From Mobula hypostoma (lineage: Eukaryota): 64,000 nucleotides of DNA. Positions 5,770 through 59,585 of the stretch are shown here, in pieces. Each line of letters opens with the position of its first letter. Position 1 is the first letter of the stretch. Location of the stretch: positions 154,134,001 through 154,198,000 of the forward strand of contig NC_086097.1 in the NCBI RefSeq assembly GCF_963921235.1, read 5' to 3'. The notes beneath the pieces are model-generated. The model was not told the DNA's origin and searched no databases. It worked only from the letters and a program-made list of their open reading frames with translations. The translations under genes were made by a program, and so were the position numbers.

Positions 5770-8530
5770 AGCAACAGAAAGAGTGACTCACTCAGATCGG
5801 CAAGGGTCCATTAAAGAGCAATGCTTCGCAGGAGTTTCTGCGTTGGCACAGAGGACGTTCAGAGATGGGGAGCGAGAAAAGGAGTGACTCACTCACGTCA
5901 GCGAGTATATGTTAAAAAACAGTGCTTCATGGGAGTTTTAGCATTTGAACAGCAGTCACTCAGATTTCAGGATTCATTAGCAAGTGCAAATTAAAATAAG
6001 GCAGGGGTAAGTGGAACGGCCTTTGTTAGAGTAGAGAGTTTTAAAGTGGGGACTTTGAGGATTGAATACATCGAGGCTTCAGCAAGGAAAGACTTGAGTG
6101 AGAGAATGTGAAAAGTTGCAGGTATATTTTTTTCCAGTTTGTTTATCGTTTCCTTCTTTATACTTGTGCAGTGAGAACAGTAGGGATGCCAAGCACAATA
6201 GTTGAATGCTTATCTTGCATAATGTCATAATGGAAAAAGGAGGGGATGAGAAGATGGCGGCGCAACGCAGCGCATGCAGCCGCTCCGAAATGGTATCTTA
6301 TTTGTTAAGTAGGTACCATGCACAATCCTGATTTGATGGAGGCAGACGTGAGAAGCATGGAGGAACACCTGGAGAAACTTTTGAAATGCCTGCTTTGCTG
6401 CCACTGCTACTGTGCGATCGAGAATCTCCAGAGGGGAAGACCCCAAATCCTCGGCTTTCCCTATTGCCTGTTGCCGGGGCCGGGGTCGAAGCACTCGGCA
6501 GAGATGGCGCTCGACGCTGGAGGGCTGGTCGGAGGCTCGAAGCTTTCGGACGGACTCGGAGTCGGACTGTGGTCGGGTGCTTCCAGGATGCTGCATCGGC
6601 AAGTTTGCGGCGCTGGAAGCTCATGGTAGGGAGAGTTTCTCCCTTCAACCATCTGCATGAGACGATGGGACTTTCGAGAGACTTTGAGACTTTTTTTTAC
6701 CATGCCTATGGTCTGTTCTTCATCAAATTACGGTATTACTTTGCACTGTTGTAACTATATGTTATAATTATGTGGTTTTTGTCAGTTTTTTTTAGTCTTA
6801 GTTTGACTTGGGTTTCTGTGATATCATTCTGGAGGAACAAATTGTATCATTTCTTAATGCATGCATTACTAAATGACAATAAAAGAGGACTGTGTGTCCT
6901 CATAATCTAATCTAATGTGGAATGCAGGGAGACTTCCAATGTCCCTGATGATTTCACCTGCAAGAGGTGCATCCAGCTGCAGCTTCTAACACTCCACATT
7001 AAGGAGTTGGACATGGAATTGGATTAACTCTGGATCATTTGGGAGGCTGAGGCGGTGACAGACAGGACACTTAGAGAGGTAGTTCGACGCAAGGTGTAAG
7101 ACACAGGAAACTAGGTGACAGTCTGGAGGGTGAAAGGAGTTAAACAGCCAGTGCAGAATAACCCTGTGGTCGTCCCCCTCAACACTCTGGATACTGTTAT
7201 GGGTTTATGACCTAGCAGAGGAAAGTCTCAGCAGTCAGGTGTCTGGCACACAATATAGCTCTGAGGCTCAGAAACGGGGTGGGAGAAGAAGTAAGCTGTG
7301 GTGATAAGGGATTCCTTTGTGAGGGGAACAGAAAGAAAGTTCTGTGGACAAGAACAAGATTCCCAGACAGTATGTTACCTCCCAGGAGCCAGGGTCTAGG
7401 AAATCTTGGATTGAGTGCTCAGGTTTCTTAAATGAGAGGCTGAGCAGCCAGAGGTCACGTTCCTTGTAGGTACCAATGACAAAGGTAGGAAGAGGAATGA
7501 GGTTCTGTAAAGTGAGTTAAGGGATTTAGGTGCTCCAGGACCTCCAGGGTTGTGATTTCAGGATTGCTACCCTTTCCATGTGCTAGTGAGGCCAGAAATA
7601 GGAAGATATTTAACACGTGGTTTAGGAATTGGGGCAGGAGGGAAGGCTTCAGATTTTTAGATCACAATGAAGGTGGGACCTGTTCAGAAGAGACGATTCT
7701 CACTTAAACTGCAGAGGGGCTAATATCCTAGTGGGAAGGTCTGCTGGTGCTGCATGGGGTTGTGAGGGAGAGTGGCAGGGGGATCCATACTTGTGAAATT
7801 AATTCAGTTAAGTTTCCTTAATCAGTACATAGAAGTCTGAATGAGCAAGTGTGCAATATCTGATCTCCTATTAGGGAATGAGACAGGGCAGGTGACAGAA
7901 GTTTATGTAGGGGAACTTTTTGAATCTAGTTCATAATGTCATTAGTTTCAAGATAATTATGAAAAAGGATAAGTCTGGTTCTTGGGTTGAGATTCAAAAT
8001 TGGAGAAAGGCCAAATTTGACGGTATCAGAAAGAATCTGACAAGTGTGGATTGAGACTGGCTGTTTTCTGGCAAAGGTGTACTTGGTGAGTGGGAGGCCT
8101 TCAAAAATTAAATTTTTGGAGTACAAAGCTTACAAAACTTTATTCCCAATAGCATAGAACATTGAGGGGAGATTTGACAGAGGTATACACAATTATGAGG
8201 GGTATATATGGGATAAATGCCAGCAAGCTTTTTCCACTGAGGTTGGGTGAGACTACAACTAGAAGTCATGGGTTAAGGGTGAAAGGAGGACATAAAAGGA
8301 AAACTTCTTCACTCAGAGGATGGTGAGATTGTGGAATGAGCTGTCAGTGCAAGGGGCGGATGTGATTTCAATTTCAATGTTTAAGCAAAGTTTAGATAGG
8401 TACAAGGATGAGAGGGGTATGGAGGGCTATTGTCCTGGTGCAGGTCGAAGAGACTAGGGAGGTTAAACGGTTCGGTATGGACTAGATGGGCCAAAGGACC
8501 TGTTTCTGTGCTGTTTTATCTATGACTCTA
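5770..8530 (+). mobile_element. Degraded, internally deleted CR1 LINE (5' UTR repeats, ORF1 esterase remnant, ORF2 fragments, 3' tail), interrupted by an insertion at 6239-6916
   Basis: Duplicated gagtgactcactca units at ~5780 and ~5882; ORF1 VVIRDSFVRGT...CYLPGARV SGNH-esterase-like remnant at 7298-7400; RGDLTEVY and WNEL remnants at 8160-8345; tail ctatgactcta at 8520. Confidence 0.7.
6239..6916 (+). mobile_element. ~680 bp non-autonomous retroposon, copy A
   Basis: One of five homologous copies in the window; head GAGAAGATGGCGGCG; tail AATAAA + GAGGAC-n5-GTCCTC + (ATCTA)n. Confidence 0.85.
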
Positions 8531-8563
8531 TAACTGTATTTATACCCCTCATAATTTTGTATA

Positions 8564-10059
8564 CAGGTGTCCCCCGCTTTTCGAACGTTCGCTTTACGAA
8601 ACCTCACTGTTAAGAAAGACATACATTAGTACCCTATTTTTGCTTTCAGCAGGTGTTTTCACTGTTACGAAAAAAAATTCAGCGCGCAATAAAAAATCCG
8701 TGCGCGAGAAAATCAGCACGCGATAAAAGACAGCCACTCTCCCCGGGATTCGGAACTGCTTTGCCTGTGAGCAGTCGTTTGCAAGATGAGTTCTATGGTA
8801 TCCAAAAAGCCTGAAAGAGCTCATAAGGGTGTTACACTTACAGTAAAACTAGACATAATTAAGCGTTTCGATCGTGGTGAACGAAGTAAGGACAAAGTGA
8901 GTTTGGCTTTTGGAAGTTGACGAAGATTATGTTGAAGAGGTTTTGGCATCCCATCACCAAGAACTGACAGATTAAGAGTTGATGCAATTGGAAGAAAAAA
9001 GGATAACAATCGAAACCGAATGTGTAATGATAAAGTACGACTTTAATTTTGAAAGGGTACGTCGGTTTAGGAGATATTTGCAGGATGGTTTGAGTTCTTA
9101 TTAAAGAACTGTGTGATAGAAAAATGTGCGAGGCTTAGCAGTCAAGCAAGCCTTCTACATCAGCCACAGCAGACGATGAACCTCAACCTTCGACATCGAG
9201 GCGGGCAGAGATAGGAGGAGATGAGCTTCCTGCTCTAATGGAAACAGACGATGAGATGACACCCCAGTGTCCCACCACCCCAACCCCCAGGCCACGGACA
9301 GATACTGTACCGATTCACGGAGAATGCAGCAGTAGCCAGGAGGCACACAGCACATCTTTAAGAAAAAAGCCAAAATAAACATGCTACTTAATTAGGTGTC
9401 GCCAACACGTAATTGTCGGCCCAGATCAGAGATGATGCAATCGGAAATCGGCACTGATCTGGGCCGACAATTACATGTCGGGCAGCATCTAATTAATTAG
9501 CTTGTTTATTTCGGTTTGGCGGCCTGGAGGGTGGGGGCCACTGCACCACCCAACCTGCGACGACTCAGTCTAACACACCATCATCTGTGTGCTCGGCGCT
9601 GTCCCGATTCCGGTAAGTGATACTACACTGTACATACATTATTTCTACTTTATATAGGCTGTGTATTTTTACGTGTTATTTGGTATGATTTGGCAGCTTC
9701 ATAGCTTAAAGGTTACTGGAGAGAGTGTTCTTGCCAACAGCGCTTGCGTGAGATTTTCTGTCGACGGCACTTGCGTGAGATTTTCACTACGGAGAACGGT
9801 TCAGTAATGATTGTGGAAAAGTATTTCTACTTTATATAGGCTGTGTATTTATCATATCATTCCTGCTTTTCCTATATGTTACTGTTAGTTTAGGTTTTAT
9901 GTGTTATTTGACATGATTTGGTAGGTTATTTTTGGGTCTGCGAACGCTCACAAAATTTTCCCATATAAATAAATGGTAATTGCTTCTTCGCTTTACGACA
10001 TTTCGGCTTACGAACCGTTTCATAGGAACGCTCTACCTTCAGATGGCGGGGGAAACCTG
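8564..10059 (+). mobile_element. Tigger/pogo (Tc1-mariner) internally deleted DNA transposon
   Basis: TA TSD (8562-63, 10060-61); imperfect TIRs caggtgtcccccgc / gcgggggaaacctg; N-terminal HTH remnant MVSKKPERAHKGVTLTVKLDIIKRFDRGERSKD (~8795-8893) fused to a C-terminal EVDEDYVEEVLASHHQELT remnant. Confidence 0.88.
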
Positions 10060-10129
10060 TACCTCAATCTCCTATGATACAAGGAGTAACATCGCCACAC
10101 TTCTGACACCCACAACCCACTAGCTCTAA

Positions 10130-10235
10130 TGGTACATCTTTGGATTGTAGCAGAAATCCTGAGCACTCAGAGGAAACCCATGCAGTGATCAGGAAAACCT
10201 ATAAACTCCTTAGAGGCAGCGGTGGGAATTAACCG
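10130..10235 (-). mobile_element. V-SINE (HE1-like) fragment
   Basis: gagcactcagaggaaacccatgcagtg...aaactcctta resembles the reverse complement of the V-SINE central domain; degraded. Confidence 0.5.
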
Positions 10236-10378
10236 CCAATCGATAATTGCTGACCAAGCCGTGATGAAATCTCTAGGCCCAAAACTTTGACTGTTCATTT
10301 CCCTTCATCATCTGCTTAATTCCTCCTGCAATTTGTTTGTGTTCCATACCGATTCAAATGCCAACCTCAGAACACATA

Positions 10379-11003
10379 CCAGGGGTGATTGATAAGTTTG
10401 TGGCCTATGGTAGAAGGAGTCATTTTTTAGAAAACCTGGCACATTTATTTTTCAACATACTCCCCTCCTACATGTGCACACTTAGTCCAGCGGTCGTGTA
10501 ACATATGGATCCCTTCTTTGTAGAAGTGGTCCACAGCAGGGGTGATTGATAAGTTTGTGGCCTAAGGTAGAAGGAGATGAATTATTAACTTCAAACTTTC
10601 TGCATAATCACTCAAAGAGTTGAACTGCATGTGCATGTAAAAACAGCATCTTGGACCTCCAGGTGGTCCACAGCAGGGATGATTGATAAGTTTGTGGCCT
10701 AAGGTAGAAGGAGATGAGTTATACAGCTCCCGTTACATACACGTGCAGTTCAACTCTTTGAGTGAAAATGCAGAAAGTTTGAAGTTAATAATTGACTTCT
10801 TTCTACCTTAGGCCACAAATTTATAAATCACCCCTGCCGTAGACCACTTTTTGGAGGTCCAAGACGCTGACTTCTACAAAGAAGGAATCCGTATGCTTCA
10901 CGACTGCTGGACTAAGTGCATAAATGTAGAAAAAATAAATGTGCTAGATTTTCTAAAATAGACTCCTTCTACCTTAGGCCACGAACTTATCAATCACCCC
11001 TCA
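10379..11003. mobile_element. Mariner-derived MITE, quasi-palindromic
   Basis: TA TSD (10377-78, 11004-05); TIR aggggtgattgataagtt.gtggccta..gtagaaggagtc at both ends; mariner C-terminal remnant FYKEGIRML.D.WTKC in inverted orientation next to each end. Confidence 0.85.
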
Positions 11004-11576
11004 TAAAACCGGCGTGGAAACAAGTCAACCATAATGACAGAAAAAAGCCAAAGACGGCACTATAGAGCATAAGATAACCAGTATTTGTTGTTGGACTACA
11101 ATAAGAGATTATTCTATCTCTACATTTAAATCAATGTTACTTATGATGATGTATATCATTCATTGTGATCTATTGCCGCAGAAAGCCAAGACGGGAGTTC
11201 ATTTACAATTTTACTGACTTGTCAATTAACAATTGTTTTAATTTATTAATAATTGCTAAGTTATGTCTTTTTGCATTACAATTAAACATTTTCCAGAAAT
11301 ATCACTCTTTTGTAGCTCCTGTATTGCTTCTTCAGATGCAACTAACCCTTCTCCTTGATATAGAACAGGCTGGTTTGTATTGTGCTTCTAAATTCCTGAG
11401 AACTTTCATTGGCACTAGTCCCTGAGGTAGCCACTTACTCTGGCTGTCTCCCACTTCTCTTGCAATTAGAGTATCTTCCCTTGCTCTATCGGTAACTGCT
11501 CCTCAAACTAAAAATGGCACACTGTGGATTTGGGCGGATTCACTTAATCCATAATGACCATAAATTATACTAAACA

Positions 11577-19087: not shown

Positions 19088-20910
19088 AAACAACAGGAAT
19101 TCTGCAGATACTGGAAATTCAAGCAACACACATAAAAGTTGCTAGTGAACGCAGCAGGCCAGGCAGCATCTCTAGGAAGAGGTGCAGTCGACGTTTCAGG
19201 CCGAGACCCTTCGTCAGGACTAACTGAAGGAAGAGTGAGTAAGGGATTTGAAAGTTGGAGGGGGAGGGGGAGATCCAAAATGATAGGAGAAGACAGGAGG
19301 GGGAGGGATGGAGCCAAGAGCTGGACAGGTGATAGGCAAAAGGGATACGAGAGGATCATGGGACAGGAGGTCCGGGAAGAAAGACAAGGGGGGGGGGAAC
19401 CCAGAGGATGGGCAAGGGGTATATTCAGAGGGACAGAGGGAGAAAAAGGAGAGTGAGAGAAAGAATGTGTGTATAAAAATAAGTAACAGATGGGGTACGA
19501 GGGGGAGGTGGGGCATCAGCAGAAGTTAGAGAAGTCAATGTTCATGCCATCAGGTTGGAGGCTACCCAGACGGAATATAAGGTGTTGTTCCTCCAACCTG
19601 AGTGTGGTTTCATCTTTACAGTAGAGGAGGCCGTGGATAGACATGTCAGAATGGGAATGGGATGTGGAATTAAAATGTGTGGCCACTGGGAGATCCTGCT
19701 TTCTCTGGCGGACAGAGCGTAGATGTTCAGCAAAGCGGTCTCCCAGTCTGCGTCGGGTCTCGCTCATATATAAAAGGCCACATCGGGAGCACCGGACACA
19801 GTATATCACCCCAGTCGACTCACAGGTGAAGTGTTGCCTCACCTGGAAGGACTGTTTGGGGCCCTGAATGGTGGTAAGGGAGGAAGTGTAAGGGCATGTG
19901 TAGCACTTGTTCCGCTTACACGGCTAAGTGCCAGGAGGGAGCTCAGTGGGGAGGGATGGGGGGGACGAATGGACAAGGGAGTTGTGTAGGGAGCGATCCC
20001 TGCGGAATGCAGAGAGAGAGGGGGAGGGAAAGATGTGCTTAGTGGTGGGATCCCGTTGGAGGTGGCGGAAGTTACGGAGAATAATATGTTGGACGCGGAG
20101 GCTGGTGGGGTGGTAGGTGAGGACCAGGGGAACCCTATTCCTAGTGGGGTGGCGGGAGGATGGAGTGAGAGCAGATGTACGTGAAATGGGGGAGATGCAT
20201 TTAAGAGCAGAGTTGATAGTGGAGGAAGGGAAGCCCCTTTCTTTAAAAAAGGAAGACATCTCCCTCGTCCTAGAATGAAAAGCCTCATCCTGAGAGCAGA
20301 TGCAGCGGAGACGGAGGAATTGCGAGAAGGGGATGGCGTTTTTTGCAAGAGACAGGGTGAGAAGAGGAATAGTCCAGATAGCTGTGAGAGTCAGTAGGCT
20401 TATAGTAGACATTAGTGGATAAGCTGTCTCCAGAGACAGAGATAGAAAGATCTAGAAAGGGGAGGGAGGTGTCGGAAATGGACCAGGTAAACTTGAGGGC
20501 AGGGTGAAAGTTGGAGGCAAAGTTATTAAAGTCAACGAGTTCTGCATGCGTACAGGAAGCAGTGCCAATGCAGTCGTTGATGTAGCGAAGGAAAAGTGGG
20601 GGACAGATACCAGAATAGGCACGGAACATAGATTGTTCCACAAAGCCAACAAAAATGCGGGCATAGCTAGGACCCATATGGGTGCCCATAGCTACACCTT
20701 TAGTTTGAAGGAAGTGGGAGGAGCCAAAGAAGAAATTATTAAGAGTAAGGACTAATTCCGCTAGACGGAGCAGAGTGGTGGTAGAGGGGAACTGATTAGG
20801 TCTGGAATCCAAAAAGCGTAGAGCTTTGAGACCTTCCTGATGGGGGATGGAAGTATATAGGGACTGGACATCCACGGTGAAAATAAAGCGGTGGGGGCCA
20901 GGGAACTTAA
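19088..20910 (-). mobile_element. Penelope-like retroelement (Neptune type), 5'-truncated; RT + Cys linker + GIY-YIG endonuclease + 3' terminal repeat
   Basis: ORF pieces 20285-20875 (MDVQSLYTSIP, KGVAMGT.MGPSYA, FLRYINDC, LPFLDL, YYKPTD), 19924-20412 (IPFSQFLRLR.ICS) and 19516-19842 (VIYCVRCSRCGLLY..ET, RFAEH, VATHFN); few frameshifts. Confidence 0.93.
19185..19222 (-). ncRNA. Minimal type I hammerhead ribozyme in the PLE 3' terminal repeat
   Basis: tagtc-CTGACGA-agg gtctcgg cct-GAAAC-GTC-gactg: stem I tagtc/gactg, stem II agg/cct, palindromic ACGT in place of stem III. Confidence 0.75.
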
Positions 20911-21049
20911 TTGCTGCTTCCTCAGTTTCTACTAATTTTATTTACAGTCTCCTCCGAGAAAATAGACAAGTTCAGATGGAATTAGTTCTGTTATTAGTGT
21001 TCTTTTTTTGAATCACTGCTTAGGTTTACAGTTCGCGGATAATAGGATT

Positions 21050-23048: not shown

Positions 23049-23049
23049 G

Positions 23050-26435: not shown

Positions 26436-26448
26436 GTACTGTCAGAAT

Positions 26449-27074
26449 TTAGATTATTAGATTATGATGACATGCAGTCCTCTTTTATTGTCACTTAGTA
26501 ATGCATGCATTAAGAAGTGATACAATATTCCTCCAGTGTGATATCACAGAAACACAGGACAGACCAAGACTGAAAAACTAACAAAACCACATAATTATAA
26601 CATATAGTTGCAACAGTGCAACAATACCATAACTTGATGAAGAACAGGCCATGGCACAGTAAAAAAGATCAAAGTCTCTCGAAAGTCCCACATCTCACGC
26701 AGACGGGAGAAGGAAGAAAACTCTCCCTGCCATGCCCAACTACAGTCCGACTCTGAGTCGCCCGAAAACTTCAAGCTCTGTTCAGCCCTCTGACACCGAG
26801 TACCGAGCACCATCTCTGCCAAACACTTCGACCTCAGCCTCGGTCGCCAGCAGCAGGCAAAGCCAGGGATTTTGGGGCCTTCCCTTCGGAGATTCTCGAT
26901 CACACAGTAGCAGCGGCAGCGAACCGGGCATTTCAGAAATTTCTCCAGATGTTCCTCTGCTTCTCACATCTGTCTCCATCAAATCAGAATTGTGCACGGT
27001 GTCCTACTTACAGATACAATATCATTTCACCGGAGAGCTGCACGCGCCGCATCGTGCTGCCATCTTCTCCTCCC
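26449..27074 (-). mobile_element. ~630 bp non-autonomous retroposon, copy B (short variant)
   Basis: Homologous to copies A, C, D and E; closest to copy E. Confidence 0.85.
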
Positions 27075-28627
27075 GCCTTATGGTGAGAGAGGAGCTGCAG
27101 TTGCTCTTGCTGATCTGGAGTAAACTTTGAGCTGCTTCCCATGTTGCCTCTTGGGGAAATGTTCTCAAGCAGCCTCTGACAAGCAACCAAACAAGGAGGA
27201 GTTGATAAACCTGGGGTGGAAGGAAATTTTTCCATTTCATAGAGACATAGAGCACTACTGCATAGAAACTGGCCCTTTCGCCCACCTAGTTCATGCCAAA
27301 CTATTATTTTGCCTGCTCCCATTGACTCGCACCTGGACCACAGCCCTCCATATCCGTCCCAACTATGTACTTATTCAAACTTCTTAAATTAAATTGAACC
27401 CTTATCCATCATTTCTGCTGGAAGCTCTGCTATGGCTGCCTCAGCCTTTGGCACGTGTTTTAGCCTCAAGATTTTAAAAAAATTCTTAAAATTGTGCACA
27501 AGTTACCTTTAATTTATGTTTTCTTGGGAGTGCAACTCATATGATGCTATGTGGCTACAAGTAAGATTTTCACTGCACCTCTGCATAAGTGTTCTCGTGC
27601 ATATGTCAATAAACAACTTTTGACTTTGACTTTAACATTGATATTGCCAGCTGCTAAACACATCCCTAGACTGGTTCACCTCTATTCTTATCCCCTCAAT
27701 GGATTTGTCCATTGATATTATGCTCCGTTCCCTTCCTAACCATTCGCCACAAGACCAGTTATTTGAGTACATTCCCATGAAAGCGTCATACCCAGGACAA
27801 TCAAGACATGTACACTTCAGGTCTTGGAATGTATCCCCCGAGGACAGAACCACTTCAGTGCTGAAGTAGTTCAATCACTCCAGGAAGCACATCCCCAGCA
27901 TTTCAATTCTTCACACGTACAGACTTTGATGTCACACTTCAAATATAGAAGCAAAAAGTGGAAGAAAGGTAAATATTTCCTGCTGATCTGCAGCTGGCAA
28001 TTTACTGGAGCTGTCAGTAAGCAAGCTCTCTTTGTTGGAACCACTGAATTATGGTTCCAGGCCAGCACGAAGTACATCTCCACTATAGAAGCAACATGGT
28101 ACATAACAAATTACATTTAAAAGCCATTGTGCTATAACACAGATTTTTTTTTGTGAAAATAGACATGGTTTTAATATCGTAATACCAGAGCACAGTGGAA
28201 CACTGAAATGCTAGAACTAACCAGTCAGATTACTGCAGTGTTTTTGCACAAGATTTAACTGTACAATAATGGGTAGGATTTTGCAGAATAGTAATGATGA
28301 AACTGTCCAGACATTACTGTTATTAATTCTCTACCTCTCTGCAAAATAAACACTCTTCTCTTGCTAAATTACAAATAAACTCCTGAGAATGCCTGTTGTA
28401 TCACCTGTACTGTAACATCTTTGAATTGTCATGCATTGTTGCAACAGTCATAAGTAAATTAGCAAAGATGTGTAATTTACAATTACTGCTTTGAAAATCT
28501 CATTCACCTAGAAAAGTTTTATTTGTATAGATTAAAATTTCATCAGAAATATTTAAATAAAATACTAAATTATATTTAAAAGATTTTGTTTAAAGAATCC
28601 ATTTATGATATTTTACATTATATCTTA

Positions 28628-31152: not shown

Positions 31153-31200
31153 TGAAGTAGGGGAATTAATGGGGATTGGAAAACTTTATTTCACCGAATG

Positions 31201-31881
31201 ATTAGGTTATGAGAACACTCAGTACTCTTTTATTGTCATTTAGAAACGCATACATGCATTAAGAAATGATACAATGTTTCTCCACAGTGATGTCACAGAA
31301 AACAGGACAAACCAAAGACTAACACTGACAGAACCACATAATTATAACATATAGTCACAACAGCGCAAAGCAATACCATAATTTGATCATTTGGGCACGG
31401 TAAAAATAAAGCCTCATCTTCCCCGAGCTAATCGTCTCCCGAGTCCCCGATAGCAGGCGGCAAAAGGGAGAAACTCCCTGCCATAAACCTCCAGGCACCG
31501 TCAACTTGCCGATGCCTTGGAAGCAGCCGACCACAGCCGACACTGAGTCTGTCCATCCGAAAACTTCGAGCCTCCGACCAGCCCCTCTGATACAGCCTTC
31601 TGAACGCCATCCTCTGCCGAGTGCCTTCGACCTCGCCCCGGCTGCCGAAACACACAAAGCCGAGGATTTGGGGCCTTCTGCTCCGGAGATTCCGGTTACC
31701 ACACAGTAGCAGCAGCAGCGAAGCAAGCATTTCAGAAGTTTCTCCAGATGTTCCTCCGTACTCTCACATCCGTCTCCATCAAATCAGAATTGTGCACAGT
31801 CCCCTACTTGACAGATTACAGATATCATTCACCGGAGAGGCCGCGCGCTCTTCCGTTGCACCGCCATCTTCTCCTCCCTCC
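31201..31881 (-). mobile_element. ~680 bp non-autonomous retroposon, copy C (divergent subfamily)
   Basis: Homologous to the other four copies; 7-bp direct repeat aatgatt (31197-203, 31882-88). Confidence 0.85.
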
Positions 31882-34800
31882 AATGATTGACATCAAGAAT
31901 ACAGTCCTTCAGTTGACTGTCGTGCAGATACTCTCATAACATTTAACGAGTATTTAGACGAGTGCTTGAGATACTGTGACATAGAAGGTTATTGGCTGAG
32001 TATTGGACATAGGATTAGCATTGATAGGTATTCCAAGTTCAGTACAGATAAGATTGGCCAAAAGGCCTGGTCCGTGCAACTTAAATCTATAGATGTACCA
32101 CAATTGCTTGCGATCTGTGTCAGCTTAATTGACCAAAACAAGTTACAATTAATATATCATGCTTCAAGTGGATAGAACCCTTAAATTACATGACAAAAGC
32201 CATTTATTAGGATATTAACAGGAAATGGGTACTTTTGGTTTGAATTAAATAAAGGTTGTATTCTAAAACGACTTTACAACAAAGTGATACATCTGCTGCT
32301 GTTATAGGAAGTATTCATGTAGATTTGATGATACAATTTAATCCTTTAAATGAATAAACCATCGCTAACGATTCTCACTATTATGTGTTGTGTCTTAGAA
32401 CATTAGCTAAATCTCCCTTTTACATGTTTCCTATGATTACTCATTCAGGAAATACCATAATTGATGACCAAATTTTACAAAGTGGCAACCTTTTCTTCAG
32501 TGGGTCAGCTTCAAAGCACTTGCTTCTCTGTTCCGCTCAATAGCATCACAAAGCCACTTAGGCTGCTACAAAGTGAAATTTGTGAACCACAATGAAGAAA
32601 ATCAGACAATTTTGAAACAAGGATTTTGTCATTGTACTTGGACAGTTGTTTTTAAATTTTGCCTTTTCTCTCAGAATTCTGCTCAGCCTTTCTTGACAAT
32701 TCAGACATATGTTTTATCCACTGCCTCCCTTTATTTACCCTTTGATTATCCATGCATTTTTCATCCCAAAAAGAGGGGAGAAAGGTATAGATTTTCTTCT
32801 TTTGCAAGTCGTTCAACTGGTCTTGTACATGGAGCATGTAATAAGGAATCACGCAAGGAAGGATCAAATTTGCTTAAGCTTTAATTTGGGTTTAGTCCCT
32901 CCATTTAAAAAAAAACTGCACCTAAACAGACACATATGTATGTATACTATTCAATAAAAGATTTCCAAATAGTGGTCTTGCGTGAAGATCTTCTCCAATT
33001 TCCAAAACTACCCTATTTCTATCTGAAGTCTGGAAGTGACTTGAGGACTCATTTGCAAGTGCAATTTCAGCGGACTGATCTTGCAGCCAAGAATTGCATG
33101 TTTGAACTCATTGCCATGAGCCACCTATAAGGCTGAGCTGAGCCTATAATAGAGGGAAAATAATGCTCTATCTGTTCTGCTTAGCAGTGAATGAGAAACA
33201 GCCACATGTCCAACATATCAAGGATAGGTGGATAGTACATGACTCCAAAGTCTAGGGATCAAGAAAACTGGAGTTGTCAAACAAAAGAAAAATAATTGTT
33301 TCTCATGCTTCCAGTTGTATAGTACCTACCTTTTTAATGACAGGTACAAATGTTCTTAGATGAATTGTCTAATGCTGTTTCTTTATACACCAGAGTTCAA
33401 TTAACTTAGGTTTAAAAGTGCCAATATCCTTTAGCCAAATCCTGCAAACTGTAAATTTAGATTTTCAACCTTTGAACTTGGAGGGAAAGTCTTTCTTTTG
33501 ACTTCATCAATCAATTCTAAGCCCCTGGATTTAAAGATATGTGCAGGTGATTATACACCATGAAAATCACGAAGAACAGCAATGCGGTTCTTTCAATGAG
33601 CAAAGCCTCCAGGTTTGGAAGTAATTTTTGATGATTTCACTCTGGGGTGCATGCAGCTGCTGAAAAAGCAAGTCCATCTTATTAACCAGGGATCAAACAG
33701 GACTCCTGGGGGGAGCAGAATCCAATTATCAAACCTCACTGCAGGCAAACAATGTTACAAATGACATAGGATGATATGGCTTATGCTAGGAAGAACATAA
33801 AAGCAGTTTCAGACATCGTCTGAAATACAGTTGCAAGCAAAGAAAATAATATTTCTCCGCAACTCATACCAGGGAAGGCCAAACTGCATATTTTGATAGT
33901 GTAAAGTTAGAACTCCTAAATTGGTTATTTTTAAATCTGTAAATAGTTTTCAAATTATGTATATTCGGCATTAGGTTATGAATGCTTTAGCTGCAGGAGC
34001 AGACTTGTAGGTGATTTGAAGTAGCAGAACCAAGGCAACAGACACCAGGCTTGAGAGCCAGGAACAAGCCAAGGTTTGACCAATTTAAGTGCTAGGCAAA
34101 ATCAGAATGGTTGGATATGGGCCGAATAGCAGTGGCAGGTCCCGGGTCCAAGACCATATAGAAGCAGCAGGCCTTGGGTCCAAGAGCAAGATAGGACCTG
34201 CTGTTTGATCGATTTAAGTGCTGGGCCAGATTGAAAACATCTTGATGTTGAGGTCAGAGGCAAGGGACGGGCCAGTGATTAGCTTGCTGTTCCATGAGGT
34301 TTACTCAAATCTGCACTGAGCTGATGTTGTGGCCTGCAACTAACCAGCTCCTTGATCAGCTATGACTGGCTTCATAGCTGTGAACTCACTTTCGTGAACT
34401 TCAGCTCTGAATGTTATTTGCTTACTTTTATTGTTTGTATGATTTGTTGTTTTTTTTCTGTACATTGGGTGGTTAGTGGCCTTTTTTTAAAAATAGGTTC
34501 TATTGGGTTTCTTTATTTTGTGGCTTCCCTTAAGGAGATGAATCTCAAGGATGAATATATCCTGCATACTTTGATAATAAATGTACTTTGAACTTTGAAA
34601 TCTCTACCTGGAAGCTTAGATTCCTTCTGTGAATAAAGAATTACCCCACGTGCATGCTCTTGCATTTAGTGTGAATGATTTTTGCAAACTATTTATTTTT
34701 TTGCTTATACCTTAAATTCTTTTTATCATTTACCACTGTCTGCATTTTCCTGGCTCACAGCAAAAGGTCGTTGAATCTGCTGTACCCTGCTCATATCAAC

Positions 34801-42679: not shown

Positions 42680-44630
42680 AAAATTTCCATGAACCAGTTC
42701 TCCGAGGATCAGAGGTGAGAAGGTCAGAAACTTTAAATTCCTCACGGTTAATACTTTGGAGGATCTGTCCTGGGCCCAGCACGCAAGTGCAATTACAAAG
42801 AAAGCACAGTAACACCTCTACTTCCTTAGGAGTTGGCTAAGATTCAGCATGACATCTAAAACTTCAACAAACGTCTATAGATGTGCAGTGGAAAGTATAT
42901 TGATTGGCTGCATGACAGCCCAGTATAAAAACAACAACGCCCTTGAACGGAAGATCCAACAAAAAGTAGTGGATATGGCCCAGTTCATTAGTGGTAAAGC
43001 CCTACCTACCATTGAGCACATCTACACAAAACGTTGTCACAGTAAACAGCATCCATCATCAGGGACCCCCACCACACAGATCATGCTCCCTTCTTGCTGC
43101 TGCCATCAGGAAGGTGGTACAGGAGCGTCAGTACTCACACCACCAGGTTCAAGAATAGTTATTACCCCTCAACCATCAGGCTCTTGAACCAAAGGGGATA
43201 ACTTCACTCTACTTCATTTCATCATTGAAATGTTCCCACAACCTAAGGATAACGAGAATGAGGAATGGTGGGGGGGGGCATTACCGATAGTTTGAGAGGT
43301 GTAGGGGCAAGTGTAGCACATGTTCCACTTGCAAGGATAAGTACCAGGTAGAGACTTGAGGGGGGGGTGGGGGCGGAGGATGAATGGACAGGGGGATCTC
43401 ATAGGGAGCGATCACAGCAGAAAGCATAGAACTGGGGGGAAGGAAAGATGTGCTTGGTGTTGGGATTCCGCCAGAGATGGCGGAAGTTAAGAAGAATCGT
43501 GTGCTGGGATGTGGAGGCTGATGGGGTGGTAGGTGAGGGCAAGAGAAACCCTATCTCTGGTGGGGTTGCGGGAGGAGGGGGTGAGAGCAGACATGCACAA
43601 AATGGAAGAGATGCAGTTGAGGGCAGCATTGATGGTGGAGGAATGGAAGCCCTTTCTTTGAAGGGGGAAGACACCTCATTAGTTCTGGAATGAAGCCTCA
43701 TCCTGAGAGTGGGTACAGCGGAGATGGAGGAACTGAGAGAAGGGGATGGCATTTTTGCAAGTGACAGGGTGGGAAGAGGTATAATCCAGGTAGCTGTGAG
43801 AGTCAGTGGATAAGCTGTTTCCAGAGATGGAGACAGAGAGATAAGAAAGAAAAGAGAGGTGTTGTAATTGGTCAGGTAAATTTGAGGGCGGGGTGGAAGT
43901 TGGAGGCAAAGTTAACGAAGTCAACGAGCTCTGCATGGGTGCAGGATGCAGCACCAATGCAGTCGTCAATGAAGCGTAGCAAAAGTTTGGGGAGTGATAC
44001 CAGTGTAAGATTGAAACACAGACTATTCCATGTAGCTGACAAAAATGCTGGCATAGCTTGGACCCATGTGAGCACCCATGGCTACACCCTTCTTTTGAAG
44101 GAAGTGGGAGGAGCTGAAGAAGAAATTATTGAGAGTGAGGACCAGTTCCACCAGACAGAGGAGAGTGGTAATAGAGGGGAACTGGTTGGGTCCGGTGTCC
44201 AGAAAGAAACGGAAGACATCAAAAGCTCTTCTGGTGGGGCATGGAGGTGTATAGGGACTGGACATCCATAGTGAAAATAAGATAATCAGAACCAGGGAAC
44301 TTGGATTAATTGAAAAGATCAAAAGCATGTGAAGTGTCACAGATGTAGGTAGGAAGGCCTTAAAAAATATCACTTTTAAGGACTCTTTATCTCATGTTCT
44401 CCATAGTTATTGCTTTTTTATTAGTATTATTTTTTTTTCTTTTTGTAATTACACAGTTTGTTCCTTTTGCACACTGGTTGAATGTCCAAATTAGTGCAGA
44501 CTTTCATTGATTCTATTATGCTGATTACTCTATTATGGATTTATTGTGTATGCCTGCAAGAAAATGAATCTCAGGGTTATATCTGGTGACATATATGTAC
44601 TTTGATAAGACATTTACTTTGAACTTACTT
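42680..44630 (+). mobile_element. Rex1/Babar-like LINE 3' part, split by a PLE insertion at ~43250-44365
   Basis: ORF 42849-43187 YRCAVESILIGC.TA; the 3' UTR resumes at tcacttttaaggactc and ends tactttgataa..tttgaactt. Confidence 0.75.
43250..44365 (-). mobile_element. Degraded Neptune-type Penelope-like element (RT and Cys linker; endonuclease deleted)
   Basis: GVAMGAHMGPSYA, LRFIDDCIG, IPFSQFL and PGTYPCK..MCYTCPYT motifs in fragmented ORFs. Confidence 0.88.
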
Positions 44631-50900: not shown

Positions 50901-51959
50901 TAACATACTACTGCCTCCGGATCCATTCTCAGTGCACTAGCTACGTGGGTAAGAACAGGGGGAAAAAAAACTTATGAGAACCTTTCTTTCTTACTTAGAA
51001 CCTCTGCTTCTGCTTGCCCAAGCCTGTTCTCGTCTAAGCCTGCTGAGTCAAAGCTGGCCCACTCTAACACTGGCTCATTTACACAATGGCCACTCCAGCA
51101 ATGACAACTTCGCTTACACTTCCTTTTGTTTTATTGACCTTGTGCAGATTTCAGCCTGATGAAAGAAAGCTGAAATCTCTCAAGCTCTTTTTAAACTTGG
51201 GGCTGCATCACCAATGAACAACCTCTTGTGCTGATTTCAGTCCATAGATTGTGTCCATTTAGATGTCTACCTAATAGGTTAAACATTATTGTATTCTAAC
51301 TCAGCTGTGCAGCTGTCTGATGTGGGTACTTGTTGTTTATTAAATGCTTGTGCAAAGGTCAATATAAAGACAGTCTTAGCTTAGTTGATTAATAACAGGT
51401 CATATACTTTAGCTATTGTTATCTGAGCTTAGGCAGCAGTGGGGACCTACAAATAACTAAAGTGATAGATGAGGAATTAAAAACCTAACTAGGATTTTTG
51501 CAGTAACACGCTGTTCACTCTCCCTGGCTGGATATGCTCAAGTATATTATCTGTAAGTAAGTGTGGGAATGAAAAGGAATCAGTCCACAGATCAAGCTGA
51601 GGGTGTATTGAGCTTCTGTCATGACTTTTGCTCTATGCTTGAAAGATATGGACAGTATACAGCTGATATTCCAGACAGCTCAACCACTTCCATGTGACCT
51701 GTCTGCATACAGCACATCAACTTAGGAGGCAAGACAAGATTTCAGGAACACAGATTCTATGCCAGACAAACCCTTCCCCCCCGCCCCCGCCAGCATTGCT
51801 AGAAGACCAGGTGGGCAGGATGTGTCAGGAGATTGTCTGAAAGAACGCTAAAGCAGGAATTCCATGGAGAACTGATCATGTGATGGATTCATAGATTATT
51901 GTAGAACCTCCTTGAGGGACGTTAACGTTGACACATACCCTGAGTCACCTTGACACAGT

Positions 51960-53375
51960 GGTGTCAAGAAAACAACATTTCCCTCAATGTTGCAAAAACA
52001 AAATAGCTGGTTGTGGACTACGGGAGGAATAGAGACAGGTTAACCCCTATTGACATCAATGGATCTGGGCTTGAGAGGGTGAACATCTTTCAGTTCCTCG
52101 GCATACACATCACTGAGGATCTCACATGATCTATACATACTGGCTGTGTGGTGAAAAAAGCACAACAGTGCCTCTTTCACCTCAGACGATTGAAGAAGTT
52201 TGGTATGGGCCCCCAAATACTAAGAACTTTCTATAGGGGCACAATTGAGATTATCCTGATTGACTGCATCACTGCCTGGTATGGGAACTGTACTTCTCTC
52301 AATCGCAGGGCTCAGCAGTGTGGTGTAGACAGCCCAGCATATCTGTAGATGTGAACTTACCGCATCTACATTTACAAAGACAGGAGTGTAGAAAGGACAT
52401 TTACAAAGATAGGTGTGTAAAAGGGCCTGAAGGATCATTGGGGACCTGAGCCACCCCAACCACAAACTGTTCCAGTTGCTACCAGGAGGGGAGGAGAAGA
52501 TGGCGGCGCGACGCAGCACGCGCGGCCACTCCAAAATGATATATTTGTGGGTAGGTACCGTGCAGAATCCTGATTTAATGGAGACAGATGTGAGAAGCAC
52601 GGAGGAACATCTGGAGAAACTTCTGAAATGCCCGTTTCGTTGCCGCTGCTACTGCGCGATCGAGAATCTCCGGAGGGGAAGGCCCCAAATCCTCGGCTTT
52701 GCCTATTGCCTGTTGCCAGGGCCGGGGTCGAAGTGCTCGGCAGAGATGCTGCTCGGTGCCGAGGGCTGGTCGGAGGCTCGAAGTTTTCGGACGGACTCAA
52801 GAGTCGGCTGTGGTCGGGTGCTTCCAGGGTGCTGCATCAGCAAGTTTGTGGCACTGGAAGCTCATGGCAGGGAGAGTTTTTTTTTCTTCTACTATCTGCG
52901 TGAGATGATAGGACTTTCGAGAGACTTTGAGACCTTTTTTTTTACCGTGCCCATGGTCTGCTCTTTATCAAATTACGGTATTGCCTTGCACTGCTGTAAC
53001 TATATGTTATAATTATGTGGTTTTTGTCAGTTTTTCAGTCTTGGTCTGCCTTGTGTTTCTATGATATCACACTGGAGGAACATTGTATCATTTCTTAATG
53101 CATGCATCACTAAATGACAATAAGAGTGGACTGCGTGTCCTCATAATTTTAAAAAAACAGTACCGCAGCATAAAAACCAGGACCAACAGGCTCTGGGACA
53201 GCTTCTTCCACGAGGCATTCAGACTGATTAATTCACGCTGATACAATTGTATTTCTATGTTATATTGACTGTCCTGTTTTACATACTATTTATTACAAAT
53301 TACTATAAATTGCAAATTGCACATTTAGACTGAGATGTAGAGATTTTTACTCCTCATGTGGTGTAAGTAATAATT
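51960..53375 (+). mobile_element. Rex1/Babar-like LINE 3' part, split by retroposon copy D
   Basis: ORF 52148-52348 KKAQQCLFHLRRLKKFGM..FYRGTIE..CITAWYG; sequence resumes after 53150 with YRSIKTRTNRL.DSFF. Confidence 0.82.
52485..53147 (+). mobile_element. ~660 bp non-autonomous retroposon, copy D
   Basis: Homologous to the other copies; closest to copy A. Confidence 0.85.
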
Positions 53376-53689: not shown

Positions 53690-53825
53690 TCTTTCCTGAA
53701 GGATCTTGGCCTAAACGTCGACTGTTTATTCATTTCCATAGATACTGCCTGACCCGCTGAATTCCTCCAGCATTTTGTGTGTGTTCCTTTGGATCTCCAG
53801 CATCTGCAGAATCTCTTGTGTTTTG
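53690..53825 (+). mobile_element. Penelope-like terminal repeat fragment
   Basis: cctgaagg.tcttggcctaaacgtcgactg...cagcatctgcagaatctcttgtgt; hammerhead core disrupted. Confidence 0.7.
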
Positions 53826-54964
53826 TTCAATATAAGCTGAGTCAAATATGGTTAGATTCTGTAGTAGGAGAGTTAATTGGATAGAGTGGCTAAAGCATTT
53901 CAGGATGTATATTGTATGCATTTCTCTGACATTAAACTTGACTTTTGAACCTTTGAAACTTAAATACGTGAAGACGAGGACAGGCACACTCCACAACCTG
54001 ATAGCATTAGATGCATCAATTTCAGGCATATATTGGCTATTTGTTTCATTATTTTTATGCCCAGTTTTGCAATGCTACATATGATCAGCCATGATCATAC
54101 TGAATGGCGGTGTAGGCTCGAAGGGCCGAATGGCCTACTCCTGCACCTATTTTCTATGTTTCTATTTAAAAACGCAAATCAAAATGAGGACATAATAAAA
54201 ACTTTCAAATATCAAGATACGTGAGATTTGTACCAGAAGGTTGAAATTAAATATTTGAAATTGGGAGTATCCAGATAACAATGGAAAGTTCACACACAGA
54301 ATTCTTGAGCCTTCTACAGTGTATTCATTTATTTTGATATAATATTTCTTCTTTATTGCATCTAACAGCCCGGTTTTGAGAAATGATCAAACAGATATTT
54401 TTTGACAACTGGCTTGAATTGCCATAAATTGATTCGGCTGTGAAACCATACAGCAAGATTGTTTAATAGGTATTTCAGAACATGTGCTCATGTGATTAGT
54501 GACACAGTCTTCAGAGAGCAAGGTTGCTTTATTTTCTACACAATTAGACATGACAAACTTGAGATGGCTATGCAGTAATACCTCAAAATATACACTGCAG
54601 CTCTCAATAATAAAACTTCATTATAGTAAAGTCAGTCCTGTGTTCCCCTTTATTTTGTTGTCAATTGTTCTGCAATTCTTCTTCAACAAATAATTTTGTG
54701 CTGCTACACAATTATCTCCAAAAGAAAATTTTTCATAACTAAGTTATTTTTCCCCAGGAAAGCATCACCTTATTGCATGAGAAATATTATTGTATTCTTT
54801 ATGAAAAATACCACTGTATATTTATGGCTAAACACCCTATTCAATAAATTTGGTAAAACTGTACAGCATAGGAACAGGCCCATTGGCCCACAATGCCAGT
54901 GCTGACCAAGGTGCCAAGTTAAACCAAACCTATCCAACTACACATTATGTATATCTCTTTGTTC

Positions 54965-55205
54965 CTCTCTTACCACCATTCAGGGCCCCAAACAGTCCTT
55001 CCAGGTGAGGCAACTCCTCACTTGTGAGTCTGTTGGGGTCATCCATTGCATCCGGTGCTCCCGGTGCGGCCTCCTCTACATCAGTGAAACCCGACACAGA
55101 TTGGGGGTCCGCTTCGTCGAGCACTTCTGCTCCGTCCGCCACAACAAACAGGATCTCCCGGTAGCCACCCACTTCAACTCTGCTTCCCATTCCCATTCGG
55201 ATATT
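54965..55205 (+). mobile_element. Penelope-like GIY-YIG endonuclease fragment
   Basis: VIHCIRCSRCGLLYISETR.RLG.RF.EH...LPVATHFNS; paralogous to 19516-19842. Confidence 0.85.
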
Positions 55206-55826
55206 TATACTATTTTATATGTTTTGCTGTATTGCTGCTGCAAAATAATAAATTCCACAACATACGTCAATGATAATAATCCTGATTCTAATTCTAATTC
55301 TGAGACTAGAAGATAAGATTTAGGGGAGTTGCAGTGGGGGAAGAATTTTAAGGGTGCCAGGAAGAAAACTGGCAGGGAGTTTGGAAGTGAATGCTTAGAA
55401 ATCGGAGAAGTACTGTAAATAGATGCAGCAAACTGATGATGAACGTTAAGAATATCCGAGCTGGGGAGGGAGTTGGAGTTGAAGTTAGGAATGGACTGAA
55501 GCAGCATAAGGACATTGTCAAGGAGAAACTGTGATGGTTTATTGGGGGTGTGAGCATCAATAAAAATGTATCTGATCTAAGCAAAATCAAAGCCTGAGGA
55601 TCCAACAGAAGCCAAGGTAAGGACTTGTTTTTAATGCTCCTTAAACTTCTGATTATGACCTGGTCTGAAGCTTAATCATGTTGTTCACAAACCTAGCAAG
55701 AACAGAAGGAAATTATTGATTCTGAACTCTTGGTAACGCTGTTCTAGACCAACAGAGACCCACAAAGTGTAGTTAGCCGATTTAGCATCAAAAATTCTTC
55801 TGAGGAGTATGAAATATATTACTTAC

Positions 55827-55897
55827 TGCTGTTCAGAGTCTGTGAAATGTAGATCGAGCTTCAGCTGGAAGTCCACTTCATTCAATGCCTCTTCCAC
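55827..55897 (-). CDS. FAM135B: FAM135B-like internal coding exon (71 bp; first exon in window)
   Basis: ctttgcag|GTGGAAGAG...GAACAGCA|gtaagt; translates [23 protein letters not shown](Q), matching the FAM135B sequence I recall ([23 protein letters not shown]). Confidence 0.93.
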
Positions 55898-57029
55898 CTG
55901 CAAAGCAAGTGAAATAAGTAAACAAAGATGGTATCCTCAGTATATGAATTGTGAAAAAACATCTTAAGAATGTTCTCAAATTTATTTTGTAAAAATATAA
56001 ATTCTTACTAACTGATGGAAATGTCTAACTCATGACTGCTTTGGATAGGGATGAAGATTCTCAGAAGGCACTGAAAACCTCATTCTTGGGAGTGGAAACC
56101 TGGCAAATCCCATGGAAAGAGCAAGTCATCTCCTACATTACCCATGCACCCACTCCTAAGGCAATAGTTGCAGATTTCACAATGGCCTTATCTGCAAACT
56201 TAGGACCAAAATCCTTAACCATGAGGAACTGCCTTGCCTTGCCTTCAAACAAAGAGAATTGTTTGAAAGCAAGACAAAAAACTATCACTGCTAAGTGTGT
56301 CATTACTAAAGGAAAGTCAGGGCAAACGAGAGTGGTTCTGCACTGGAAGATTTTCTGTTAAAAATAACTGAGCATTATTTCTCTAAAGAATAGTAAATTA
56401 GCATATTCTCCAACCTAATTAACCTCTTTCCTCATGACACCAGGAGCCTGAAAAAAAGAACAGATGTGAAAATGGTCAGCCTGAATTATGCAGTAATTGT
56501 TAGATACAAGGTTGGTGAGCATTATGGCAATGGTGTGCTAGAAGGTTTCAGTTCATGTCAACCACGATGTGTTTAAATATGGATTTCAATAGATTTATTA
56601 TGATTAACCTTAGAAGTTAGGATAAATGCATACGATCGCTTTTATCTGTGCATTTAATCACAGAAGATTTTTTAATATGTGAAAAACTGTACTACAGCAG
56701 AATTCAGAATGTGAGACAATGAACTTGCCAACGTTAGACAGAAATGATATACTGATTTTTCTCTGTTTCTTTAAAAAATTAAGATAATCACAGTCTATTG
56801 AATACAATTAAGGTTTTTTTTTACCTATTAAAAGCGTCCTCTGAAATGTTAACTGTTTCTCTTTCTACAAATGCTGCCTGACCTGCTGAATGTTCTCAGC
56901 ATTTTCAGTTTTAACTCCAAATTTACAATAATTATTTTAATTTACTCATTGTATTTCAAAGGTTTTATGAGTTTAAAGAAACAACACATTTGAAAGGATT
57001 GTCATCAACAAGTGCGAACCAGTTGGAAA

Positions 57030-58455
57030 GAGACAGATAAAAATCAGAATTAAATTTATTATCTCCGGCATATAGCGTGAAATTTGTTGTCTTTGCAGCA
57101 GTAGTACAATGAAAAACATAATAGAAAAAGTGTGAAGGTTAAATTGAATAAGTAGTGAGGTGTTGTGCATTGGTTCAGCGTCCGATCAGAAATCAGATGC
57201 CAGAGGGGAAGAAGCTGTTCCTGAATTGTTGAGTGTGTGTCTTCAGGCTTGTGTATTTCCTTCCTGATGGCATCAATGAGAACAAGCCATGACCTGAGTG
57301 ATGGGGGATCTTAACAATGGATCCTGCCTTTCTGAGGCATTGCTCCTTTAAGATGTCCTGGATAACTACAGAGGCTAGTGCTCATGATGGAGCTTACTTT
57401 GATCCTGCGTAGAGGTCACCCCTTACCAGGAAGTGAGGCAGCCAGCTAGAATGCTCACAATGGTACATCTGCAGTAATTAATGAGCGTCTTTGCTGATGT
57501 ACCAAATCTCCTCAAACTCCTAATGAAACATAGCTGCTGTCGTGCCTTCTGTGTAGCTGCACTGACTTGTTGGGTCCAGGATAGATCCTCAGAGATATTG
57601 ACCCTCAGGAATTTGAAACTGTTCACTCTTTCCACTTCTGATCCCTCTATGATGACTAGTGTGTGTTCCCTTGTCTTATCCTTTCTTAAGTCCACAATCA
57701 GTTCTTTGGTCTTACTGACATTTAGCGGAAAGATGTTGCTGCAACACCACTCAACTAGCTGATATATCTCGATCCTGTTCGGCCTCTTGTCATCTGAAAT
57801 TCTGCCAATAATAGTGATTCCATCAGCAAATTTATAGATGGCATTTGAGCCACACAATCATGGGTATAGAAGGAGTAGAGCAGTGGGCTAAGTATATATC
57901 CCTGAGGTGCACGAATGTTGATTGTCAGCAAGGTGGAGATATTACTTCCAATCCACACAGACTGTGGTCTTCTGGTTAGGAAGTCAAAAATCCAGTTGTA
58001 GAGGGGGGTAGAGGGTCTCAGATTCTACAGCTTTTTGATCAGAAACATAGGAATAATTGTGTTAAACACTGAGCTATAGTCAATAAATAGCATCTTGAAA
58101 AAGATATTTCTATTGTCCAAGTGATCCAAGGCTGCGTGAAGAGCCAATAAGATCGCAGTCATTCTGGATCTATTGTGGCAATAAGCAACTTGCAATGGAA
58201 TCAAATCTTTGCTGAGATAGGAGTCAATTCTAGCCATGATCAACCCTTGAAGTCATTGAGGCAGCTCACCCTGCTCTTCTTGGGCACTGGCATAATTGTT
58301 CCCCTTTTGAAGCAGGTGGGACCTTTCGACTGTTGCAATGAGAAACTGAAAATGTCTTTAAACAACCCCACCAGCTGGTTGGCATAGGTTTTCAGAGCCC
58401 TACCAGGTACTCCATCAGGGCCTGTCACTCAGCAAGAGTTCGCCCTCTTGAAAGA
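57030..58455 (-). mobile_element. Rex1/Babar-like LINE RT region and 3' end
   Basis: GPDGVPGRALK, PVPKK, MLFIDYSS.FNTI, APQG.ILSPLLYS.YTHDC, KFAD, KARQQL.F.R.LRRFG. Confidence 0.88.
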
Positions 58456-58961
58456 CCAATCCCAAGTTCTAGTGGCTTGTAACTTCAAAATTCAACATTC
58501 CCTTCAAAATTCAGTTGCAGATACAATGAGATCTCTATCACCAAGACTATAATTATCAGAGTTTTCACATATTTGAACCTACTGTGAGATCTTAACACCA
58601 CATATTATTTATTTTATCATTTGTGGGAAGTGAGTTCAGAATTAGAGAAACCCTCATTTGCTATTATGCAGGGCGAAAAAATTAGTAGATATGCGAATTG
58701 GCTATAATCTGATACAAACAAAACTTTGTTTCTTTGTTAAATTCATAGTAGAATGCAACTCTACACAAAAGAGAAAATTTAACATCTATAATAAGTTCTC
58801 CTTATATTATTTTAAGCAAAATCTCTAAGTTCTAATGGGCCCCAATAATCCATTTGATGTCAGTGCAGGTGCTGATACTGGGACCTGCAGGAAGAAGGAG
58901 TTAGAACCAAACATGTCCAGTGAGCGAATAAATTTCTGGATATCAATCCAAAATCCAAAAA

Positions 58962-59585
58962 GGGAGGAGAAGATGGCAGCGCGATGCAGTGCGCGCGGCT
59001 CTCCGGTGAAATGATATCGTATCTGTTAAATAGGGGCCGTGGACAATTCTGATTTGATGAAGACAGACGTGAGAAGCAGAGGAACATCTGGAGAAATTCT
59101 GAAATGCCTGGTTTCGCTGCCGTTGTTACTGTGCGATCGAGAATCTCTGGAGGGAAGGCCCCAAAATCCCCGGCTTTGCCTGCTGCTAGCGACCGAGGCT
59201 GAGGTAGAAGCATTCAGTTAGAGATGGTGCTCAGTACTCAGTGTCGGAGGGCTGACCAGAGCTCAAAGTTTTCGGACGACTCAGAGTCGGACTGTGGTCG
59301 GGCATGGCAGGGAGAGTTTTCTTCCTTCTCCCGTCTACGTGAGATGTGGGACTTTCGAGAGACTTTGAACTTTTTACCGTGCTCATGGCCTGTTCTTCAT
59401 CAAGTTATGGTATTGTTGCACTGTTGTAGCTATATGTTACAATTATGTAGTTTTGTTAGTTTTTCAGTCTTGGTCTGTCCTGTATTTCTGTGATATCACC
59501 CCGGAGGAATATTGTATCATTCCTTAATGCATGCATTTCTAAATGACAGTAAAAGAGGACTGTGTGTTCTCATAATCCAATCTAA
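58962..59585 (+). mobile_element. ~620 bp non-autonomous retroposon, copy E (short variant)
   Basis: Homologous to the other copies; shares an internal deletion with copy B. Confidence 0.85.

Follow-up and report, generated by a model that had tools for sequence, protein, structure and literature searches.

A non-coding retroposon family of the devil ray Mobula hypostoma with ends like those of one group of fish LINEs

What moves a repeat that encodes no protein and carries no small-RNA head? The question is raised by a 64,000-nucleotide stretch of the Mobula hypostoma genome (the window; contig NC_086097.1, positions 154,134,001 to 154,198,000), in which a family of 620-680 nucleotides (nt) is present in five copies, A to E (Table 1). 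We propose, with a probability of roughly 0.6, that this is a high-copy non-coding retroposon whose two ends are like those of one group of fish long interspersed elements (LINEs), likely Rex1/Babar, and that it would be a bipartite derivative of that group copied in trans. Because both ends resemble the ends of one LINE group, the family is likely to be a passenger of that group. Judged from the sequences, the likeness between the family ends and the fish LINE ends is at the level of motifs only, and its weight is considered below together with the alternatives.

The five copies and their class

The five colinear copies lie where an earlier note, made from the letters of the window alone, had placed them, and every pair aligns in BLAST at E < 1e-80, with identities of 87% for A/D, 90% for B/E and 72-77% for the remaining pairs. 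BLAST of the window finds no sixth copy or fragment of the family. The division into at least three variants also holds: B and E are without 45 alignment columns, and C is the most divergent (73.5-77.9% identity to the others over ungapped columns). The same head opens all five copies, whose starts agree within 4 nt, at 12 (A), 11 (B), 11 (C), 12 (D) and 8 nt (E) above the motif AAGATGG, and an AATAAA signal lies close to the 3' end. Among the variants, C>T and G>A changes are in excess, at 83 of 137 places in one sequencing run, which fits CpG decay of methylated copies.

The tail contains two hairpins followed by a simple repeat. Stem-loop 1, a longer hairpin just 5' of the GAGGAC hairpin, had gone unmentioned in the earlier note; it is shared in form with the 3' ends of Rex-type LINEs, closes with TGACAATAAA and, from its sequence, is likely to be a recognition signal for reverse transcriptase (RT). 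Hairpin 2 (GAGGAC-n5-GTCCTC) is specific to the family. It had been described for every copy; all its pairs are intact in A and E, and one mismatch is present in each of B, C and D. Similarly, the (TCTAA)n repeat that was thought to end all copies is absent from D and reduced to a single unit in C. The family-wide consensus at contig loose ends opens with CTAATCTAAT. Scans for the tail pattern gave 0 matches in viral contigs and 0 in metagenome contigs.

To which class of mobile element do these copies belong? Consistent with what had been proposed, they show no tRNA, 5S or 7SL homology: nothing in the window reaches the Rfam gathering score (the three matches that D and E give at E<=5 are at chance level), and ARAGORN finds no tRNA. 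No A box (one mismatch allowed) and no strict B box occurs in any of the five heads, a single loose B-like match lying at +150 of B; moreover, transcription by RNA polymerase (Pol) III is unlikely because each copy contains four to five internal runs of at least four T. Transcription by Pol II is likely, as far as the sequence can tell. Coding for RT or transposase is likewise missing, with no Pfam family in any of the seven frames scanned over the copies; against 120 LINE proteins the best protein match of the copies has E 0.10, and the frames differ between copies. In D, the head ATG starts an open frame, which we considered as a gene and rejected: the corresponding frames of A, B, C and E end after 13-26 codons, and no autonomous element was matched. 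For a captured host exon, two weak searches of longer proteins gave no match at E<=1.

Solo long terminal repeats (LTRs) are, like these copies, mostly full length with an AATAAA signal close to the 3' end; other conceivable classes are non-autonomous DNA transposons and Pol III short interspersed elements (SINEs) with an unrecognised head. However, the copies have neither TG..CA ends nor a uniform 4-6-bp duplication; terminal direct or inverted repeats are absent from all three copies tested (A, D and E), the elements end in a simple repeat, and D stands alone within a LINE. Together with the missing Rfam and tRNA matches and the internal T runs, these points leave this group of explanations highly improbable and already largely refuted. 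None of the three results by which the earlier note would have been refuted was obtained, in searches that excluded Repbase and Dfam. Two candidate partners were also rejected. An L1-dependent element is not indicated, since the family has (AATCT)n instead of a poly(A) tail and a significant duplication in only one of five copies; a SINE dependent on CR1 (HER1) is not indicated, since the 3' end is not shared with the local CR1.

Head and tail motifs shared with one LINE type

For the comparison of ends we used metagenome loci of fish LINEs in which RT is followed by PF09004, taking the best 80 of 146. They represent one sampled LINE type and are not independent of one another (L002/L005 and L003/L004). 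We tentatively assign this type, a single open reading frame (ORF) with APE, RT and PF09004, to Rex1/Babar; no paper linking PF09004-type LINEs to Rex1/Babar was found in the literature searched. Rex1/Babar elements have often lost the endonuclease and possess a conserved 3' untranslated region (UTR) and an oligonucleotide tail, according to a review (PMC6274825). The RT and PF09004 type is consistent with that description, and the ray family, like Rex1/Babar elements, has a conserved 3' UTR with an oligonucleotide repeat behind it.

The tail provides the first point of likeness. Of the loci, 47 extend to the end of the ORF and have at least 200 nt behind it; TGACAATAAA is found in the 3' UTR of 15 of these, whereas neither 90,061 nt of coding sequence nor 29,036 nt of minus strand contains it. 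In 12 LINE loci the motif closes a TC(G/A)TTG..CAATGA stem, and four of the five ray copies place TCATTT..AAATGA or TCACTT..AAGTGA at the same position; the letters differ and the pairing is kept. The repeat (AATCT)n terminates L001 and L002.

The head provides the second. Sixteen loci have at least 150 nt upstream, and in seven of them the motif ATGGCGGC ([A/T]TGGCGGC) precedes the ORF motif by 30-330 nt, where 0.03 are expected; the stricter AAGATGGC occurs in three of 22. In the ray copies AAGATGGCGGC, whose YY1 label we take from PMC5381506, is followed by blocks like ACGCAGCG and CTCTCC(A/G)G of the 5' ends of fish Rex-type LINEs. Over the 36 nt after the head motif, 22 of 60 copy-by-head comparisons beat shuffles at p<0.05, the best being with L011, L005 and L007. 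At the level of motifs, the family and the Rex1/Babar-type loci compared have in common the stem of the tail, TGACAATAAA, the unit of the repeat and the ATGGCGGC head. Furthermore, four of 19 near-full-length LINEs carry both ends on one locus (L002, L007, L008 and L029), and L002 also has (AATCT)n. At L002:108-, L007:646-, L008:2237- and L003:140- the head ATG opens a single ORF of 963-994 codons. These four ORFs start with a hydrophobic, signal-peptide-like stretch, and the 5' UTR is almost absent.

The co-occurrence of head and tail on single LINEs bears on the origin of the bipartite structure. The earlier note had proposed a LINE-dependent bipartite retroposon with an L1-type head fused to the tail of an L2/CR1 element. 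The LINE-dependent, non-coding, non-tRNA nature and the YY1-type head are supported, and its comparison of the leader with the mammalian L1 start consensus (PMC5381506) is borne out; the proposed join is not. Five CR1-type 3' ends from the window are unlike the family tail, and because both ends are found together on single LINEs of the RT and PF09004 type, one LINE group is indicated instead of two.

Could the head nevertheless have been captured? A chimera would combine a Rex1/Babar-type tail with a head taken from the 5' end of an L1/Tx1 element or from a host promoter or first exon; in the host-gene version, the YY1 site would lie over the start codon. Such capture is possible because the leader follows the pattern with which mammalian L1 begins, G2-6(A/C)G2AGNCAAGATGGCGGA (PMC5381506), and not that of fish LINE heads; in addition, no ORF relic follows the head, and the body is without a detected homologue. 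We nonetheless consider a chimera unlikely. LINEs with the family-type tail have the same head motif at their 5' end, the likeness to LINE heads extends over the next 36 nt, the head frames matched no host protein (in weak searches), and the poly(A) tail and regular duplications of L1 are missing.

The derivation of both ends from one Rex1/Babar-type LINE must be weighed against several contrary results. No alignment-level match exists between the copies and the 80 LINE loci in blastn (best E 0.041). Profile hidden Markov models of LINE heads and tails find matches on the copies, none significant singly, at 3-6 bits where the best shuffles reach 6.5 and 11.9, and the best protein E values of the copies, 0.10 and 0.028, are not alignment-level homology. 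The 60 head comparisons are not independent, and their shuffles ignore CpG richness. No hairpin 2 follows TGACAATAAA in the LINE tails inspected, the G-rich leader is like mammalian L1 and unlike fish LINE heads, and the body shows neither an ORF relic, nor a trace of the N-terminal motif of the LINEs, nor a protein match. The window itself holds seven fragments of the RT and PF09004 type; the family tail is absent from all seven, and an RT tree places the Rex-type fragments of the window apart from the loci with both ends, although with 83 rows, six left out for short coverage, a midpoint root and low support this tree is a hint only. No junction to a long partner appears among the contig loose ends listed. 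Finally, the tail folds have z-scores of only -0.5 to -1.9, and covariation in the five copies shows no excess over shuffles, the one pair changed on both sides (U-A to C-G in stem 1 of copy B) being equalled by 113 of 500 shuffles.

The ends might instead come from another LINE clade with similar termini, for example RTEX; common descent or convergent evolution of short signals would then account for the Rex1/Babar likeness. The sampling covered a single LINE type, the motifs measure 8-10 nt, and the partner was found neither in the window nor among the loose ends listed. Against this, the sampled type combines all four features: the motif and the stem of the tail, the repeat unit and the head. 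A separate short element of the window, element F, also links this kind of tail, weakly, with the N-terminal ORF motif of the sampled type. Another clade seems to us improbable, and less probable than a captured head.

Mobilization, target sites and abundance

How might a Rex1/Babar-type passenger be propagated? We propose that the bipartite derivative would have formed by internal deletion or rebuilding of a Rex1/Babar-type LINE. A putative Pol II start lies about 11-12 nt above the internal YY1-type site, and because the start would lie above that site, each copy would keep its own promoter. The endonuclease/RT of the partner may then bind stem-loop 1 and prime on the (AATCT)n tail, and an RNA of 620-680 nt, being short, would usually be copied to its 5' end.

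This last step bears on the absence of 5' truncation. All five copies are full length, as reported in the earlier note. That note had found this striking; however, three of the truncated LINE copies of the window measure about 0.9-1.4 kb, lengths that come from protein-based detection, which favours long copies, and full-length copies are largely expected because the family is shorter than these.

The target sites are varied. C is flanked by a 7-bp duplication (AATCATT), a length reached by 0.33% of 3000 random flanks. The 4-bp duplications of B and E are not significant (10% and 13% of random flanks), and A and D have none. D interrupts a LINE fragment of the RT and PF09004 type, and contigs of other copies of this host LINE, nine in one run and 15 in another, join 52484 to 53155 and have about six other letters at the junction. 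Because these contigs join the two positions, D was likely inserted with a small target loss of about six bases. Directly 5' of E, at 58944-58961, AATCCAA repeats resemble the tail unit of E itself, and the duplication of C starts with AATC; annealing of the tail to the target is a possible explanation of both. One contig joint, in run X5, connects the tail region to the head (window positions 52490 and 52973), which suggests a tandem or partly duplicated copy elsewhere.

The family is abundant. The stretch or part of it is contained in 20 of the 24 sequencing runs listed, eight of which have half its words or more. RNA runs are absent from this list, which has no bearing on expression, and rows with a small share of the stretch were set aside. 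In two runs at least 358 and at least 289 contigs leave the 3' end of the element into differing flanks, and thus at least hundreds of insertion sites exist; five copies per 64 kb suggest far more. Contig depth near +110 to +165 is about that near the tail, depth not being a measure of copy number. Among the loose ends listed, all those at internal positions match variants B, C or E.

Some copies appear to have entered gene models. Of 1.84 billion proteins searched, 12 match, at E<=0.001, the frame that opens at the head ATG of D, and all ten that were looked up are RefSeq 'uncharacterized' models of Mobula birostris or M. hypostoma. In two of the 12, both predicted models, a host domain is recognisable: LHFPL-like (P0123) and Ig V-set (P0127). 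Nine of the 12 enter the element at one common point, and the TAG there is likely to be a splice acceptor for Mobula models that take other copies as exons. The family therefore contaminates Mobula gene models. The best protein match of a neighbouring LINE fragment is from a sawfish.

Table 1. Positions in the window of the five copies, their parts and associated features
Feature	Position	Strand	Remark
Copy A	6239..6916	+	Long variant, full length, without target duplication
Copy B	26449..27077	-	Short variant; start corrected from 27074
Copy C	31204..31881	-	Divergent variant
Copy D	52485..53154	+	Long variant, within Rex-type LINE fragment; end about 53154 by empty-site joints
Copy E	58962..59585	+	Short variant; 5' start shorter by 3-4 nt than the others
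Head of A	6239..6290	+	G-rich leader, AAGATGGCGGC YY1-type motif at 6251; same in all copies
Putative splice acceptor TAG	6310-6312 (A), 52552-52554 (D)	+	Common start in 9 of 12 proteins
Variant block	6578..6621 (in A)	+	Kept in A, C and D, missing from B and E; by alignment
Stem-loop 1 of A	6841..6883	+	TCATTT pairs with AAATGA; closes with TGACAATAAA
Hairpin 2 of A	6885..6901	+	GAGGAC-n5-GTCCTC, family-specific
Terminal repeat of A	6902..6916	+	(AATCT)n
Target duplication of C, 3' copy	31197..31203	-	7 bp, AATCATT
Target duplication of C, 5' copy	31882..31888	-	7 bp
Host LINE fragment 5' of D	51950..52484	+	RT and PF09004 type; resumes at 53155
Host LINE coding end, continued 3' of D	53155..53235	+
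Element F	928..1520	-	Separate single-copy short element, family-like layout

Known passengers and other elements of the window

Bipartite non-autonomous LINEs without an ORF are an established class that includes the Bov-A, RIME, NARTc and RTE-N families (PMC5786205). Like these, the ray family has no small-RNA head or ORF, has LINE-like ends, is presumably transcribed by Pol II and would be mobilised in trans. In the text of PMC5786205 available, the sources of such elements are only RTE, Ingi, Vingi and R2, and Pol II transcription is considered very likely; the part of PMC7245038 available adds cases from RTE only. In contrast, the ends of the ray family point to the RT and PF09004 type, likely Rex1/Babar, and the family has a 450-nt body without a detected homologue as well as a second tail hairpin. 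The corresponding portion of PMC5499810 does not mention Rex. No non-autonomous bipartite derivative of Rex1/Babar was described in the literature searched, which excluded Repbase, Dfam and subscription journals, and the ray family may already be catalogued in Repbase or Dfam; Dfam groups ORF-less elements by the LINE on which they depend (PMC7805219).

Other comparisons delimit the family further. It differs from Rex1/Babar LINEs in lacking endonuclease and RT, in the mostly full-length state of its copies and in having the G-rich leader and hairpin 2. SINE2-5_NV of the sea anemone, paired with Rex1-24_NV (PMC3747384), is also a short non-autonomous element with a Rex1 partner; it has a tRNA head, and the ray family has none. 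Likewise, the HE1 V-SINE and HER1 CR1 pair of sharks and rays presents a short, LINE-dependent element in the same host group; however, HE1 is tRNA-headed and CR1-tailed (PMC3747384), and the CR1-type tails of the window are unlike those of the ray family. With mammalian L1 the family shares a G-rich leader followed by the AAGATGGC YY1 motif at the extreme 5' end (PMC5381506); it lacks the poly(A) tail, the regular duplication and the NC of the consensus, and this comparison covers the first 20 nt.

PMC5786205 poses as a question why so few LINE clades yield bipartite passengers, with sampling bias and transcription needs as candidate answers. We tentatively suggest, at somewhat less than even odds, that Rex1/Babar is a fifth clade that has spawned bipartite Pol II passengers, with a very-high-copy family in devil rays. 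Each copy of this family would carry a YY1 initiator that overlaps the start codon of the parent ORF and converges on the mammalian L1 start, and would seed a splice acceptor and a polyadenylation signal into host genes. If true, a Rex1/Babar passenger headed by so compact a YY1-type sequence would speak for the view that what enables passengers is a 5' initiator that is short and self-contained, and the 50-nt head is a putative promoter small enough to be tested.

Element F has an AAGATGG head at 1518, a relic of the ORF N-terminal motif at 1397 and the tail type at 939; its AAGATGG lies 579 nt above the tail, which is like that of D in 34 of 49 columns. It reads YDGKTLLDIG 118 nt after the ATG, where LINEs have the N-terminal motif, in a frame that is the best of 36 but weak, at 4.3 bits. 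On these features element F fits an internal deletion of the RT and PF09004 LINE type in this genome. Another LINE-type tail follows it directly, at 875-893.

The remaining features are minor. Fragments of another RT family lie at 19516-20941, 43296-44280 and 54906-55316, with a weak RVT_1 match at 20285-20941; they are presumably Penelope-like. At 10380-11001 a 40-60-nt unit forms three direct repeats and one inverted repeat at 95-97% identity, and at 60181-60352 an 85-nt tandem duplication is present in two copies with 94% matches.

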